A stretch of DNA of 64,000 nucleotides from Escherichia coli (GTDB lineage: Bacteria; Pseudomonadota; Gammaproteobacteria; Enterobacterales; Enterobacteriaceae): the NCBI RefSeq assembly GCF_044324875.1, contig NZ_CP172185.1. One strand, given 5' to 3'. Of this stretch, positions 4,849-50,192 are shown piece after piece. Both the position numbers and the translations under genes were made by a program. The notes below the pieces were generated by a model. That model had not been told where the DNA came from, made no database searches, and saw only the letters and a list, made by a program, of their open reading frames with translations. Within the stretch, counting starts at the first letter, position 1. The number at the start of each line of letters is the position of its first letter.

Positions 4849-4924
<76 letters not shown>

Positions 4925-4978
4925 GTTTAAAAGACATCGGCGTCAAGCGGATGTCTGGCTGAAAGGCCTGAAGAATTT

Positions 4979-5052
4979 GGCGCGTTAACAAAGCGGTTAT
5001 GTAGCGGATTGCAAATCCGTCTAGTCCGGTTCGACTCCGGAACGCGCCTCCA
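4979..5052 (+). tRNA. cysT: tRNA-Cys (anticodon GCA)
   Basis: GGCGCGTTAACAAAGCGGTTATGTAGCGGATTGCAAATCCGTCTAGTCCGGTTCGACTCCGGAACGCGCCTCCA. Confidence 0.97.
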
Positions 5053-5064
5053 CTTTCTTCCCGA

Positions 5065-5151
5065 GCCCGGATGGTGGAATCGGTAGACACAAGGGATTTA
5101 AAATCCCTCGGCGTTCGCGCTGTGCGGGTTCAAGTCCCGCTCCGGGTACCA
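5065..5151 (+). tRNA. leuZ: tRNA-Leu (anticodon TAA), long variable arm
   Basis: GCCCGGATGGTGGAATCGGTAGACACAAGGGATTTAAAATCCCTCGGCGTTCGCGCTGTGCGGGTTCAAGTCCCGCTCCGGGTACCA. Confidence 0.97.
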
Positions 5152-10043: not shown

Positions 10044-10839
10044 ACCTAATATCCTTATATCCAGAAGTGGAGAGGTGCAAGATAAATCAAAACACCATAA
10101 TTACTGTTTGCAGAATAATTCCTTTCTGCCGGTCCGAAATGTGATCGTGGAGTCAATTCTGACGATGATCTGAAATAAGAATAACGTCTGAACGGGTATA
10201 AGAAAATGCTTAAATCATCAAGTTTATATATTTTTACATTTCATTGATGAAATCAATGTAACTGCAATGAATTTTAATGATAGTGCTTTTTGTATCTTGT
10301 TGATATTAATCGATGAATTTGAATTCATGATGAAGTGATGATTTTATAAAACGTTTTTTCATTTTTGCGAGATGGCTCTCATTATACGTGTTCTGTTAAT
10401 TAATGAGCACAGTGATAATTAATGGCGAAATGAATGACGCGCATTTTCCACATCTTTGAGTTGTGGTTATTACACCCTTTCAAAAACTCAACGCCAGGTA
10501 ATGCGGCCTGTTGACTGGTTAAAAAGAAGACATCCCGCATGGGTACCAAAGACAACAAGGATTTCCAGGCTAATCTTATGGATTAATCTGCTGTGCACTA
10601 GACAATTTGTCAGACAAATTGGCTTTCCCTTATGTCTTTTCCCGCTAAATTTATGCACGTTCTCACTGTAATTCTGCGATGTGATATTGCTCTCCTATGG
10701 AGAATTAATTTCTCGCTAAAACTATGTCAACACAGTCACTTATCTTTTAGTTAAAAGGTAATGCTTTGTTTTCCGATTAATTTAACGAATGTCATTCGTT
10801 TTTGCCCTACACAAAACGACACTAAAGCTGGAGAGAACC

Positions 10840-33620: not shown

Positions 33621-33650
33621 AAAGCCGATGTCTGCCATGACATCGGCTTT
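33621..33650. terminator. Bidirectional hairpin terminator shared by convergent flhE and argS
   Basis: aaagccgatgtc...gacatcggcttt inverted repeat flanked by A and T runs. Confidence 0.7.
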
Positions 33651-33665
33651 TGCCGTATAACGCGA

Positions 33666-36185: not shown

Positions 36186-37020
<835 letters not shown>

Positions 37021-37211
37021 ATCCCCGAGAAGTATAAAAAACGAACGATTTCGGTGATCAGTTGAGCGCGTGACAGTGCGCATAGCGTTGTGCTAAAAAT
37101 TTTTATACATTCATATTAATTATGTAATTTAAATTACTAAAACTGACAAATATATATTCTAAATAACAACTGGGTTATTCTTTAGCAATTAATGATTACA
37201 TTGTAATAAAT

Positions 37212-37220
37212 CATATTCTT
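37212..37220. repeat. Left copy of 9-bp target-site duplication (CATATTCTT) flanking IS1
   Basis: Identical 9-mer directly abuts both ends of the IS1 (37212-37220 and 37989-37997). Confidence 0.9.
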
Positions 37221-37275
37221 GGTGATGCTGCCAACTTACTGATTTAGTGTATGATGGTGTTTTTGAGGTGCTCCA

Positions 37276-37551
37276 GTGGCTTCTGTTTCTATCAGCTGTC
37301 CCTCCTGTTCAGCTACTGACGGGGTGGTGCGTAACGGCAAAAGCACCGCCGGACATCAGCGCTATCTCTGCTCTCACTGCCGTAAAACATGGCAACTGCA
37401 GTTCACTTACACCGCTTCTCAACCCGGTACGCACCAGAAAATCATTGATATGGCCATGAATGGCGTTGGATGCCGGGCAACTGCCCGCATTATGGGCGTT
37501 GGCCTCAACACGATTTTACGTCACTTAAAAAACTCAGGCCGCAGTCGGTAA
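37276..37551 (+). CDS. insA: IS1 InsA (transposition inhibitor / N-terminal part of InsAB' transposase)
   Basis: 91 aa [40 protein letters not shown]...; GTG start. Confidence 0.95.
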
Positions 37552-37973
37552 CCTCGCGCATACAGCCGGGCAGTGACGTCATCGTCTGCGCGGAAATGGA
37601 CGAACAGTGGGGCTATGTCGGGGCTAAATCGCGCCAGCGCTGGCTGTTTTACGCGTATGACAGGCTCCGGAAGACGGTTGTTGCGCACGTATTCGGTGAA
37701 CGCACTATGGCGACGCTGGGGCGTCTTATGAGCCTGCTGTCACCCTTTGACGTGGTGATATGGATGACGGATGGCTGGCCACTGTATGAATCCCGCCTGA
37801 AGGGAAAGCTGCACGTAATCAGCAAGCGATATACGCAGCGAATTGAGCGGCATAACCTGAATCTGAGGCAGCACCTGGCACGGCTGGGACGGAAGTCGCT
37901 GTCGTTCTCAAAATCGGTGGAGCTGCATGACAAAGTCATCGGGCATTATCTGAACATAAAACACTATCAATAA
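37470..37973 (+). CDS. insB: IS1 InsB' frame (expressed as InsAB' transposase via -1 programmed frameshift at AAAAAAC 37527-37533)
   Basis: 167-aa ORF in -1 frame relative to insA; canonical IS1 slippery motif ttaaaaaactc present. Confidence 0.9.
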
Positions 37974-37988
37974 GTTGGAGTCATTACC

Positions 37989-37997
37989 CATATTCTT
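37989..37997. repeat. Right copy of 9-bp target-site duplication (CATATTCTT)
   Basis: See left copy. Confidence 0.9.
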
Positions 37998-38103
37998 TAT
38001 CGATTATTTCAGGCAGTGTTGTGCCGAATTATGCAAGCGGTCAATTCGTTGTATATTTAATTATACAATGATTTCGGTGTTCTGGAATTAATTAGAGGAA
38101 TCT

Positions 38104-39204
38104 ATGCGAGGGAAAAAACGCATTGGGTTAATGTTTTTGCTGATAGCGGTTGTGGTTGGTGGCGGCGGGTTATTGCTGGCGCAAAAAGCCTTACATAAAA
38201 CGTCGGATACCGCATTTTGCCTTTCCTGCCACTCGATGAGTAAACCTTTTGAGGAATATCAGGGAACTGTCCACTTTTCGAACCAGAAAGGGATACGTGC
38301 GGAATGTGCCGATTGCCATATTCCAAAGTCAGGGATGAATTATTTATTTGCTAAATTAAAAGCTTCTAAAGATATTTATCATGAATTTGTTAGCGGCAAA
38401 ATAGACAGTGACGATAAATTCGAAGCGCATCGTCAGGAAATGGCCGAAACAGTATGGAAAGAATTAAAAGCAACTGATTCTGCAACGTGTCGTAGTTGCC
38501 ATTCTTTTGATGCCATGGATATTGCCTCGCAAAGTGAATCTGCGCAGAAAATGCATACCAAAGCGCAAAAGGACGGCGAAACCTGTATCGATTGTCATAA
38601 AGGCATTGCCCATTTTCCACCAGAAATAAAAATGGATGACAACGCGGCGCATGAGCTGGAAAGTCAGGCCGCTACTTCAGTTACCAATGGCGCACATATT
38701 TATCCTTTCAAACCTTCCCGCATAGGCGAACTGGCCACTGTGAATCCTGGTACCGATCTCACCGTCGTTGATGCCAGTGGCAAACAGCCGATCGTTCTGT
38801 TGCAGGGTTATCAAATGCAGGGCAGTGAAAGCACGCTCTACCTGGCGGCAGGTCAACGTCTGGCGCTAGCCACATTAAGTGATGAAGGTATCAAGGCGCT
38901 GACGGTAAACGGGGAATGGCAGGCTGACGAATACGGCAATCAATGGCGTCAGGCGTCTTTACAGGGTGTGCTTACCGATCCCGCATTAGCGGACCGTAAA
39001 CCGCTATGGCAATACGCTGAAAAACTTGACGATACCTATTGCGCTGGTTGCCATGCCCCTATTGCCTCCGACCATTACACCGTCAATGCTTGGCCGTCCA
39101 TTGCCAAAGGTATGGGGGCGCGAACCAGCATGAGCGAAAACGAACTGGACATTTTGACGCGGTACTTCCAGTACAACGCCAAAGATATTACCGAGAAACA
39201 GTGA
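38104..39204 (+). CDS. torY: TorY, membrane-anchored pentahaem c-type cytochrome (TMAO/N-oxide reductase system III)
   Basis: 366 aa [22 protein letters not shown]...; multiple CxxCH haem motifs (CLSCH, CADCH, CRSCH, CIDCH, CAGCH). Confidence 0.95.
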
Positions 39205-39228: not shown

Positions 39229-41658
39229 ATGACATTAACAAGACGTGAATTTATTAAACACAGCGGTATTGCCGCTGGGGCGCTGGTGGTGACATCGGCT
39301 GCACCGCTACCCGCATGGGCAGAAGAGAAGGGTGGCAAAATCCTCACCGCGGGCCGTTGGGGAGCGATGAACGTAGAAGTGAAGGACGGCAAGATTGTTT
39401 CTTCGACAGGCGCGCTGGCGAAAACCATACCGAACTCCTTACAGTCTACGGCGGCGGATCAGGTACACACCACGGCGCGTATTCAGCATCCGATGGTGAG
39501 AAAAAGCTATCTCGATAATCCACAGCAACCGGCGAAAGGTCGTGGCGAAGATACCTATGTACAGGTGAGCTGGGAACAAGCATTAAAACTGATTCATGAG
39601 CAACATGATCGTATTCGTAAAGCTAACGGACCATCGGCCATTTTTGCCGGATCTTACGGCTGGCGCTCTTCTGGCGTGTTGCATAAAGCGCAAACCTTAC
39701 TGCAACGTTATATGAACCTGGCGGGCGGTTATTCCGGGCATAGCGGCGATTATTCAACCGGTGCGGCACAGGTGATCATGCCGCATGTGGTGGGTTCCGT
39801 GGAGGTGTATGAACAGCAGACCTCCTGGCCGCTGATTCTGGAAAACAGCCAGGTTGTGGTGCTGTGGGGGATGAACCCGCTGAATACCTTAAAAATTGCC
39901 TGGAGCAGTACCGATGAGCAAGGGCTGGAATACTTCCATCAGCTGAAAAAATCTGGCAAACCAGTGATTGCCATTGATCCTATCCGCTCCGAAACCATCG
40001 ACTTCTTTGGCGATAACGCCACATGGATCGCCCCAAATATGGGTACCGACGTGGCGTTGATGTTAGGGATTGCGCACACCTTGATGGTACAAGGTAAGCA
40101 CGATAAGGCCTTCCTGGAAAAATACACCACCGGCTACCCGCAGTTTGAAGAGTATCTGGCAGGCAAGAGCGATAATACGCCGAAGAGCGCGGCCTGGGCG
40201 GCGGAAATTACTGGCGTACCGGAAGCGCAGATAGTCAAACTCGCTGAACTGATGGCGGCGAATCGCACAATGCTGATGGCAGGCTGGGGAATTCAGCGCC
40301 AGCAATATGGTGAACAGAAACACTGGATGCTGGTGACGCTGGCGGCGATGTTAGGGCAGATTGGTACACCGGGCGGCGGTTTTGGTTTCTCTTATCATTA
40401 CTCCAACGGTGGTAACTCGACGCGTGTTGGCGGCGTGCTGCCGGAAATGTCTGCGGCGATTGCCGGACAGGCCAGTGAGGCCGCTGATGATGGCGGAATG
40501 ACGGCGATTCCTGTTGCCCGTATCGTCGATGCGCTGGAAAATCCTGGCGGAAAATATCAGCATAACGGTAAAGAACAAACGTATCCGAATATCAAAATGA
40601 TCTGGTGGGCGGGTGGCGGTAACTTTACCCATCACCAGGATACTAATCGTCTGATCAAAGCCTGGCAGAAACCGGAGATGATCGTCGTTTCTGAATGCTA
40701 CTGGACCGCAGCTGCTAAACATGCAGATATCGTATTACCGATCACCACATCGTTTGAGCGCAATGACTTGACGATGACCGGTGATTACAGCAACCAGCAT
40801 ATTGTACCGATGAAGCAGGCTGTCGCTGCGCAATTTGAAGCGCGTAACGATTTTGACGTGTTTGCCGATCTTGCTGAATTACTCAAACCTGGCGGAAAAG
40901 AGATCTATACCGAAGGTAGAGATGAAATGGCGTGGCTGAAATTTTTCTATGATGCCGCTCAGAAAGGTGCCCGTGCGCAACGCGTGACTATGCCGATGTT
41001 TAATGCCTTCTGGCAGCAAAATAAACTGATCGAAATGCGCCGCAGCGAGAAGAACGAACAGTACGTTCGTTATGGTGATTTCCGCGCCGATCCGGTGAAA
41101 AATGCGCTGGGTACGCCAAGCGGCAAAATTGAGATTTACTCCAAAACGCTGGAAAAATTTGGCTATAAGGATTGCCCGGCACACCCAACCTGGCTTGCGC
41201 CTGATGAGTGGAAAGGTTCCGCCGACGAGAAGCAGTTGCAGCTTCTGACCGCACATCCGGCACACCGTTTACACAGTCAGCTTAACTATGCGGAACTGCG
41301 TAAAAAATATGCGGTTGCCGATCGTGAACCGATCACTATTCACACCGAAGATGCTGCTCGCTTTGGTATTGCGAATGGCGATCTGGTGCGTGTCTGGAAC
41401 AAACGTGGTCAGATTCTGACAGGCGCGGTGGTGACTGACGGGATCAAAAAAGGCGTGGTATGCGTGCATGAAGGTGCATGGCCAGATCTGGAAAATGGCT
41501 TGTGTAAAAACGGCAGTGCGAACGTGTTAACGGCGGATATCCCCAGCTCTCAGCTGGCAAATGCCTGTGCCGGTAACTCTGCGCTGGTGTATATCGAAAA
41601 ATATACGGGCAATGCACCGAAGTTAACGGCGTTTGATCAGCCAGCTGTTCAGGCATAA
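39229..41658 (+). CDS. torZ: TorZ (BisZ), periplasmic molybdoenzyme TMAO/N-oxide reductase
   Basis: 809 aa from [31 protein letters not shown] (Tat signal, RREFIK); DMSO reductase family. Confidence 0.95.
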
Positions 41659-41734
41659 GACGTGAAAAGCGCCCGGAAATGGGCGCTGAGGTTATGCAAA
41701 CGTAAAACTGCCTGATGCGCTATGCTTATAAGGC

Positions 41735-49382: not shown

Positions 49383-49985
49383 TTATACCGCCTCGGTCAG
49401 TTCCGGCTGAGGCGTTTCCACTCCCTCCGCATGAATCAACACCAAACCCGGATGATGCCACAAACTGGCTGGCGTGACGGTTTTACGCTCCCACGGAATA
49501 GAACCTAAGAACCAGAATTTCCAGAAAGTGAGTTTTGCATTCGGATTGCTATTTAACAATTCTCCAAACGTCTCTATTTCACCCACCGGAATACATAGCG
49601 CTTTTTTATAAATATCAAAAACAAATTTTGAACAGAACTGGCGCGAAGATTCGTATTTAAAACCGGTGTGGTAAAGTTTGCGTAGCCGGGAGGGAACCTG
49701 TTCAACAATTCGTTGTTTTTGTTGTTCTGTAAGCCCGGCGTCTAATCGCTTTATAGCATAGCGTTGATTAGAAGAACGTTTAATAAAACGAGATAGCGTG
49801 GTGATGGTTGAAAGGGGAACCCGGCTTTCTGCAACCATGAAGTCTTCACCGTTATGACCGATAATGATCCCGACGTGATTACTCCAGCAATTTGATGCAG
49901 CTGATATTTGACCAAATAAGGCAGCACCTATACATGTAAAGACGATATCACCAATTTCATATTCAGCAGGATAATTAATATTCAC
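49383..49985 (-). CDS. yebB: YebB, DUF830 family protein
   Basis: 200 aa [34 protein letters not shown]...; convergent with ruvC, stops 1 bp apart. Confidence 0.85.
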
Positions 49986-50192
49986 ATTGTCATTCCATTG
50001 AAATAGATATGAATATACGTAATAGCATAAAAAATTTATTTTTTCAGGAGGCGCAATATGTATTTTTATTACGCATTTCTTCGCTGAATATGTAATATTT
50101 AAATATTTGCTTCCAATATAACCTGTAGAAAAAATTCTACTGCGCCATTTTTCAGATCATCGGGACGCCTCGCAAGTTTTCTTCATCCTTCG

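Follow-up and report, generated by a model that had tools for sequence, protein, structure and literature searches.

Does the copy of IS1 that lies between cutC and torY in this Escherichia coli chromosome change the expression of torYZ, and why did it land at this particular place? Both questions are raised by a 64,000-nucleotide stretch of DNA (hereafter the window), in which IS1, among the best-characterised of bacterial insertion sequences, occurs exactly once. An IS1A-like element entered the extremely AT-rich cutC-torY spacer of a non-K-12 E. coli by simple insertion, and we consider it probable that torYZ is further insulated or unchanged, and not activated. The element used its usual route, in which the InsAB' transposase is made via -1 frameshifting at the A6C motif and cuts the target with a 9-bp stagger. 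The polarity of IS1, combined with the lack of a good -10 in the flank, would then leave the weakly expressed torYZ genes further insulated or as they were. As for the place, IS1 has a preference for AT-rich DNA, a kind of DNA that H-NS typically binds, and other AT-rich spacers of the window have also been struck in other strains; the site was therefore probably chosen for this preference.

The inserted DNA is a complete IS1 and displays every testable defining feature of that element (coordinates of all features are given in the table). Its terminal inverted repeats of ~23 bp begin GGTGATGCTGCC / GGTAATGACTCC, and the two arms, 23 nt each, are imperfect and 78% complementary. Between them, the insA and insB' frames are both intact. 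The insA product is at once a DNA-binding regulator and the N-terminal part of the transposase, and on a conceptual -1 shift the two frames read without interruption as an InsAB' fusion of 232 aa (37276..37530 joined to 37530..37973), in agreement with the 'programmed frameshift' annotation that PGAP gives to near-identical copies. In keeping with this arrangement, the NCBIfam model NF033558 ('IS1 family transposase') is split over the two ORFs, with model positions 1-81 in InsA and 75-199 in InsB, and InsA alone scores 91.3 bits, under the 100-bit whole-protein cutoff of the family. The insB' frame matches Pfam DDE_Tnp_IS1 (PF03400) with E=2e-78.

The closest well-known relative is IS1A of E. 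coli K-12 (MG1655 19796-20563), which is likewise 768 bp long, has identical ends and shares the A6C frameshift and the DDE_Tnp_IS1 transposase. The two copies differ by 3 bases in 768 and in their chromosomal location; InsA is identical, and InsB carries 2 substitutions, one of which falls outside the fused protein. Identity to copies annotated by PGAP as 'IS1-like element IS1A family' is 99.6-99.9%, and a single base, A at IS1 position 561, is private to the window among the copies examined. Judged by its sequence, the element is complete and apparently functional. The hexamers of its own promoter (CTGCCA, TATGAT) are those given for the K-12 insAB promoters (PMC3946193).

Table. Features of the cutC-torYZ interval, in window coordinates.
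Feature	Position	Strand	Basis or remark
cutC, upstream neighbour	36195..36941	+	NCBIfam NF008603, 481 bits; homologous-locus annotations
MicL sRNA, 3' part of cutC and 3' UTR	36713..37020	+	Rfam RF02654, 362 bits, full length
Native AT-rich tract, IS1 at its edge	37062..37220	.	G+C profile
Predicted sigma-70 'constitutive' torYZ promoter, GTGACA-18-TAAAAA	37070..37099	+	PMC3946193 Table 2
Left 9-bp target-site duplication, CATATTCTT	37212..37220	.	abuts IS1 left end
Complete IS1 element, IS1A-like isoform	37221..37988	+	768 bp; 765/768 identical to MG1655 IS1A
IRL, GGTGATGCTGCCAACTTACTGAT	37221..37243	+	inverted-repeat search; unique in window
IS1's own weak promoter in IRL, CTGCCA-16-TATGAT	37228..37255	+	promoter scan
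insA	37276..37551	+	91 aa, GTG start; Pfam Zn_ribbon_InsA and HTH_Tnp_IS1 (PF03811, PF12759)
insB' frame	37470..37973	+	167 aa; -1 relative to insA; DDE catalytic part
A6C programmed -1 frameshift motif AAAAAAC, within TTAAAAAAC	37527..37533	+	read from sequence
IRR	37966..37988	+	contains outward -35-like TTGGAG at 37975-37980
Right 9-bp target-site duplication, CATATTCTT	37989..37997	.	abuts IS1 right end
Remaining native torY-proximal spacer	37998..38103	+	weak sigma-70-like matches and torY ribosome-binding site
torY, pentahaem c-type cytochrome	38104..39204	+	366 aa, intact; exact protein in many NCBI assemblies
torZ, S-/N-oxide reductase catalytic subunit	39229..41658	+	809 aa, intact; coordinates transferred from L015 gene calls

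How did the element get there? IS1 duplicates 8-10 bp of its target, mostly 9 bp, and a perfect 9-bp duplication is what we find. The repeated sequence occurs exactly twice in the window, directly outside both IS1 ends. Two copies alone would be unremarkable, since 11 of 100 shuffles held at least two matches to the 9-mer. What makes the repeats informative is their placement against the element and not their mere double occurrence: the chance that the 9 bp after an element equal the 9 bp before it is roughly 4^-9. The window is collinear with MG1655 from 1,996,966 to 1,932,237, in reverse orientation and at 97-98% identity, and the two MG1655 alignments that flank IS1 overlap by exactly 9 bases (K-12 1958240-1958248). 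Because the flanks are collinear and the overlap is exactly 9 bp, no rearrangement adjoins the element: it is a simple insertion polymorphism, in which nothing was deleted or rearranged. In fact, the micL-torY interval of MG1655 is free of mobile elements and reads ...ATAAATCATATTCTTTATCGATT..., with the target in single copy, and the empty site with a single CATATTCTT is also found at other loci (L013 and L015-L018). Four of these, L015-L018, come from NCBI assemblies that encode an identical TorY protein, and they show 0 mismatches to the window from -1045 to +2007 of the site. The insertion spares MicL and cutC, and both torY and torZ remain intact.

These results bear out every checkable part of what the preliminary description had proposed. 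It had recorded a full 768-bp IS1 with both terminal repeats, insA, insB and the A6C site, all of which were found intact. Its identical flanking direct repeats were recovered as CATATTCTT at both ends, and its view of a simple transposition without neighbouring rearrangement agrees with the collinearity to MG1655 on both sides. It had also expected MG1655 to carry no IS at this position, and the alignment to MG1655 and to other strains indeed returns a single CATATTCTT.

In torZ, over ~39996-41680, the window departs from L015-L017 by ~30 clustered differences that begin at +2008 of the site; this clustering suggests that a recombination boundary may lie inside torZ.

Is the insertion peculiar to this strain? 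The exact window junction occurs in 0 of 5,426 complete E. coli genomes, and its search in species-representative genomes and JGI metagenomes gave 0 matches. The closest complete RefSeq genome, among the 5,426 searched, is 99.4% identical over 22 kb. Other IS1 insertions in the cutC-torY region are found in the same orientation as that of the window in 10 genomes and in the opposite orientation in 37; a search designed for both orientations shows at least 57 genomes visibly occupied in the 1-kb region. The 37 genomes were returned by a reversed-IS1 query, and an apparent orientation bias (13 insertions, all towards torY) was accordingly discarded as an artefact of query design.

Twenty loci were mapped onto the empty site. 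They define 15 distinct junctions in the 386-bp spacer, at window-equivalent positions 37042-37256, and 5 further sites inside torY, with target-site duplications of 8, 9 or 10 bp. For example, NZ_AP023230 (YJ4), NZ_CP088131 (strain 81) and NZ_CP062853 carry the same element in the same spacer with 8-10 bp duplications. Some of the other spacer insertions lie 11-17 bp from the window site, but none has the window junction; the nearest full insertions are 11 bp to the right (L004) and 15 bp to the left (L005). The left junction of L011 is only 1 bp from the window site, but it is joined with a deletion into torY.

One of these insertions, an IS1 in reverse orientation with the duplication GTGCCTAAT, lies 75 bp upstream of the torY ATG in ~26 genomes, including L027 (NZ_AP023230.2). 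It looks like a lineage marker, and torY downstream of it is annotated as intact. The strains that carry it are mostly clinical or associated with multidrug resistance (YJ3/YJ4, M505, M719, MIN12 O89m:H10, NDM2 and others).

In three cases, L010-L012, the right side is deleted into torY. Here IS1 has no target-site duplication (L010, NZ_CP122517, 2038-2805; L011, NZ_CP063467, 3501-4268; L012, NZ_CP126343, 3379-4146), and the loci look like IS1-mediated adjacent deletions or like the outcome of recombination between two copies of IS1. In the torY interior, L011 and L012 have their right junction in common, and their left junctions in the spacer differ; at L020, a full IS1 sits just 5 bp from this common right junction. 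At L009 (NZ_CP046416, strain LZYWN_4), torY is interrupted by two different IS1 copies, one that is 92% identical to the window IS1 and has an 11-bp duplication, and a second, IS1A-like and in opposite orientation, further downstream. In other strains torY has been destroyed by many insertions and deletions, an indication that the loss of TorYZ is tolerated.

Is the spacer a hot spot, or simply a generic AT-rich target? As controls, we applied the same two-orientation design to three other AT-rich spacers of the window in the 5,426 complete genomes. Counted as lower bounds on raw genomes with kinship ignored, matches at least 80% covered were found in at least 40 genomes for cutC-torY (at least 57 visibly occupied), at least 9 for araF-ftnB (at least 15), at least 6 for yebB-ruvA (at least 19) and at least 75 for uspC-flhD, a known IS target. 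The araF-ftnB spacer corresponds to window positions 10044-10788 and the yebB-ruvA spacer to 49929-50160. The uspC-flhD matches come mostly from laboratory derivatives of MG1655, plus ~20 natural strains. Once obvious clones are collapsed, the excess of cutC-torY over the neutral controls is ~1.5-2-fold, and cutC-torY is the most AT-rich spacer in the window. A special hot spot, or selection for insertion here, was therefore rejected: all AT-rich spacers tested are occupied and the excess is small after clone collapse. Since every tested AT-rich spacer is occupied and the excess fits the highest AT content, we conclude that the recurrence is best explained by a generic target preference and probably not by selection. 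Thus, the species carries IS1 in AT-rich spacers quite generally, and the recurrence of IS1 in this spacer makes the window insertion less special.

What, then, would the insertion do to torYZ? Upstream, the MicL terminator, read from the sequence as a hairpin at ~36987-37013 followed by a T-run at 37014-37020, ends 200 bp before IS1, the distance of about 200 bp downstream of the cutC/MicL terminator that had been given earlier. Downstream, 115 bp separate IS1 from the torY ATG. The earlier figure of 116 bp had the right position and counted the first base of the ATG, and its statement that the transposase genes read towards torY was confirmed. The lowest G+C content of the entire window, 16-18% over 100 bp, adjoins the insertion on its left.

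Genomic SELEX places both sigma-70 and sigma-S holoenzyme sites in the cutC-torY spacer (PMC3946193 and PMC5493296), and these published RNA-polymerase sites fit the expectation of the preliminary description that the AT-rich spacer should hold the torYZ promoter. The sole published prediction of such a promoter, chosen computationally within a SELEX peak of low resolution and not a mapped transcription start, ends 121 bp upstream of IS1; the supplements of two genome-wide transcription-start papers make no mention of torY. With the predicted promoter on the far side of the element, IS1 now separates it from torY.

Could IS1 bring a promoter of its own? Its inverted repeats carry an outward -35 that can build strong hybrid promoters, and in E. 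coli ST131 an upstream IS1 raises transcription only when a good, well-spaced -10 is available, and otherwise lowers it or leaves it unchanged (PMC8764528). At the torY junction, no good -10 stands 16-18 bp from the outward -35. With a 17-bp spacer, TTGGAG (37975-80) is paired to TATCGA, a match of 3/6 plus 3/6 that has no T at -10 position 6, and the best match across the junction, GAGTCA-18-GATTAT, reaches 7/12. A standard promoter scan found no outward-facing promoter, only IS1's own inward one. A strong outward or hybrid promoter was thus rejected on the poor -10 at the required spacing and the empty scan. Given a predicted promoter upstream of IS1 and a poor hybrid promoter, the evidence leans towards separation of torYZ from its promoter, and away from read-through or a hybrid promoter. 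IS1 is known from the classical literature to be transcriptionally polar. The best reading of these data is that the effect of IS1 on torYZ expression would be neutral to mildly reducing.

Two known insertions serve for comparison. In E. coli ST131, IS1 has likewise inserted directly ahead of an operon, at afaA (PMC8764528); that region is regulated by H-NS, as the torY spacer may be, and in both cases it is the outward -35 of the inverted repeat that counts. At afaA, however, a well-spaced -10 completes a strong hybrid promoter and transcription is ~7-log2 higher, whereas the -10 at the torY junction is poor. In the same work, IS1 lowers osmB and leaves ugd unchanged (PMC8764528).

The second case, IS1H upstream of flhD in MG1655 (1978503-1979270), is also a strain-specific polymorphism with a short target-site duplication in an AT-rich regulatory spacer, in the same chromosomal neighbourhood. 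The IS1H insertion upstream of flhD is known to raise flhDC expression and motility. It lies upstream of the promoter region, whereas the torY IS1 lies downstream of the predicted promoter. The window has no IS1H upstream of flhD: at 17690-17697 the site is empty and the K-12 alignments overlap by 8 bp.

A rival reading holds that a functional torYZ promoter lies within the 115 bp left between IS1 and torY, so that the insertion causes no measurable change. A sigma-S holoenzyme SELEX peak is indeed reported within a few bp of where torY starts (PMC5493296), weak -10-like hexamers such as TATATT (38052-38057) remain downstream of IS1, and the ~26-genome lineage retains intact torYZ with IS1 just 75 bp upstream. 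Yet the best sigma-70-like match in these 115 bp is at most 8/12, the resolution of SELEX-chip is too low to place a promoter, and the published sigma-70 pick is upstream of IS1. We therefore regard a surviving downstream promoter as rather unlikely.

The opposite view is that IS1 turns on a near-silent torYZ through a hybrid promoter, through insAB' read-through or by disrupting an H-NS complex, the recurrence of insertions being then a sign of selection. IS1 and IS5 break up H-NS silencing at bgl and flhDC, so the idea has precedents. The spacer is indeed recorded as H-NS-bound, being flagged HNS in PMC3946193 for an H-NS SELEX site, and its G+C content is 16-18%; the outward -35 can in principle support strong hybrid promoters (PMC8764528) and the transposase reads towards torY. 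It could further be argued that at least 57 genomes are occupied, against at least 15 and at least 19 for two control spacers, and that the insertion 75 bp upstream of torY is common to ~26 genomes of one lineage. However, the -10 at the needed spacing is TATCGA, with 3/6 matches and without the conserved final T. Activation of the bgl/flhDC type would require a promoter still connected to its operon; the predicted one at 37070-37099 is cut off by the insertion and not freed. IS1's own promoter is weak and repressed by InsA. Across genomes, both orientations are seen and the insertions are scattered over 15 or more positions, most of the excess relative to the control spacers is gone once clones are collapsed, and the IS1 copies inside torY or with deletions of its 5' end (L002, L009-L012, L020, L022, L023) look like relaxed constraint and not like a gain of function. 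Activation of torYZ is thus unlikely.

A broader form of this idea, which we consider quite improbable, is that IS1 insertions in cutC-torY are repeatedly selected because they rewire expression of a cryptic, stress-inducible S-/N-oxide reductase, TorYZ, up or down, in parallel to bgl and flhDC. Examples would then be the window insertion and the one that is fixed in a lineage of ~26 genomes, 75 bp upstream of torY. If IS1 were in fact selected to tune TorYZ, this would be one more natural IS-mediated regulatory switch and a clue to the conditions in which TorYZ is important; the control spacers speak against it. In the passage of PMC5122715 that summarises Gon et al. 2000, a strain with TorYZ only does not respire TMAO unless the system is overexpressed. 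Expression of torZ is weak and rises a few-fold with HOCl, copper and paraquat (PMC12096835).

One draft assembly deserves mention, because it breaks at the very same point. Contig DAJLVL010000001.1 of GCA_025523695.1 (L019) has its position 1 at the exact start of the right-hand CATATTCTT, which suggests that a repeat, probably IS1, occupies the identical site in that strain. Because its torZ differs from that of the window, the case would be either an independent insertion or a recombined allele. A contig of the same assembly ending ...ATAAATCATATTCTT, if present, would confirm that the same site is occupied there.

Finally, it is scarcely credible that IS1 was misplaced at repeat resolution or that only a fraction of the culture carries it. 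Being a multicopy repeat, IS1 does interrupt assemblies made from short reads, and the L019 contig ends exactly at the insertion site. But both window junctions are clean, a perfect 9-bp duplication of a target that is single-copy in empty-site strains would not arise from a misjoin, the window copy has its private base at position 561, and an independent draft assembly is broken at the same boundary.

The preferred reading, insertion into an AT-rich target with little or no effect on torYZ, makes this a known element with known behaviour at a site that is polymorphic within the species; the observation is correct but ordinary. Insertion into AT-rich intergenic DNA is normal IS1 behaviour, and we see here routine strain-to-strain variation that matters little beyond strain typing. 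For this purpose, the exact junction is useful as a lineage marker: 0 of the 5,426 complete genomes have it, although one draft assembly is interrupted at that position. The insertion may slightly shift the expression of torYZ, whose normal level is low and whose physiological role is uncertain.

The rest of the window differs from MG1655 in other respects. At 33623-33663, ~40 bp replace ~770 bp between argS and flhE of MG1655 (K-12 1961798-1962569, with yecV and yecT), so that the window strain lacks yecT and yecV. Intact flhDC, mot, che and flh genes, together with a single IS in 64 kb, make Shigella an unlikely source and favour E. coli. A match to the C0465 sRNA (Rfam, 100 bits) lies on the minus strand at 23377-23454, between cheW and tar, and the glyW-cysT-leuZ tRNA cluster lies on the plus strand at 4849-5151, both in the positions expected from K-12.
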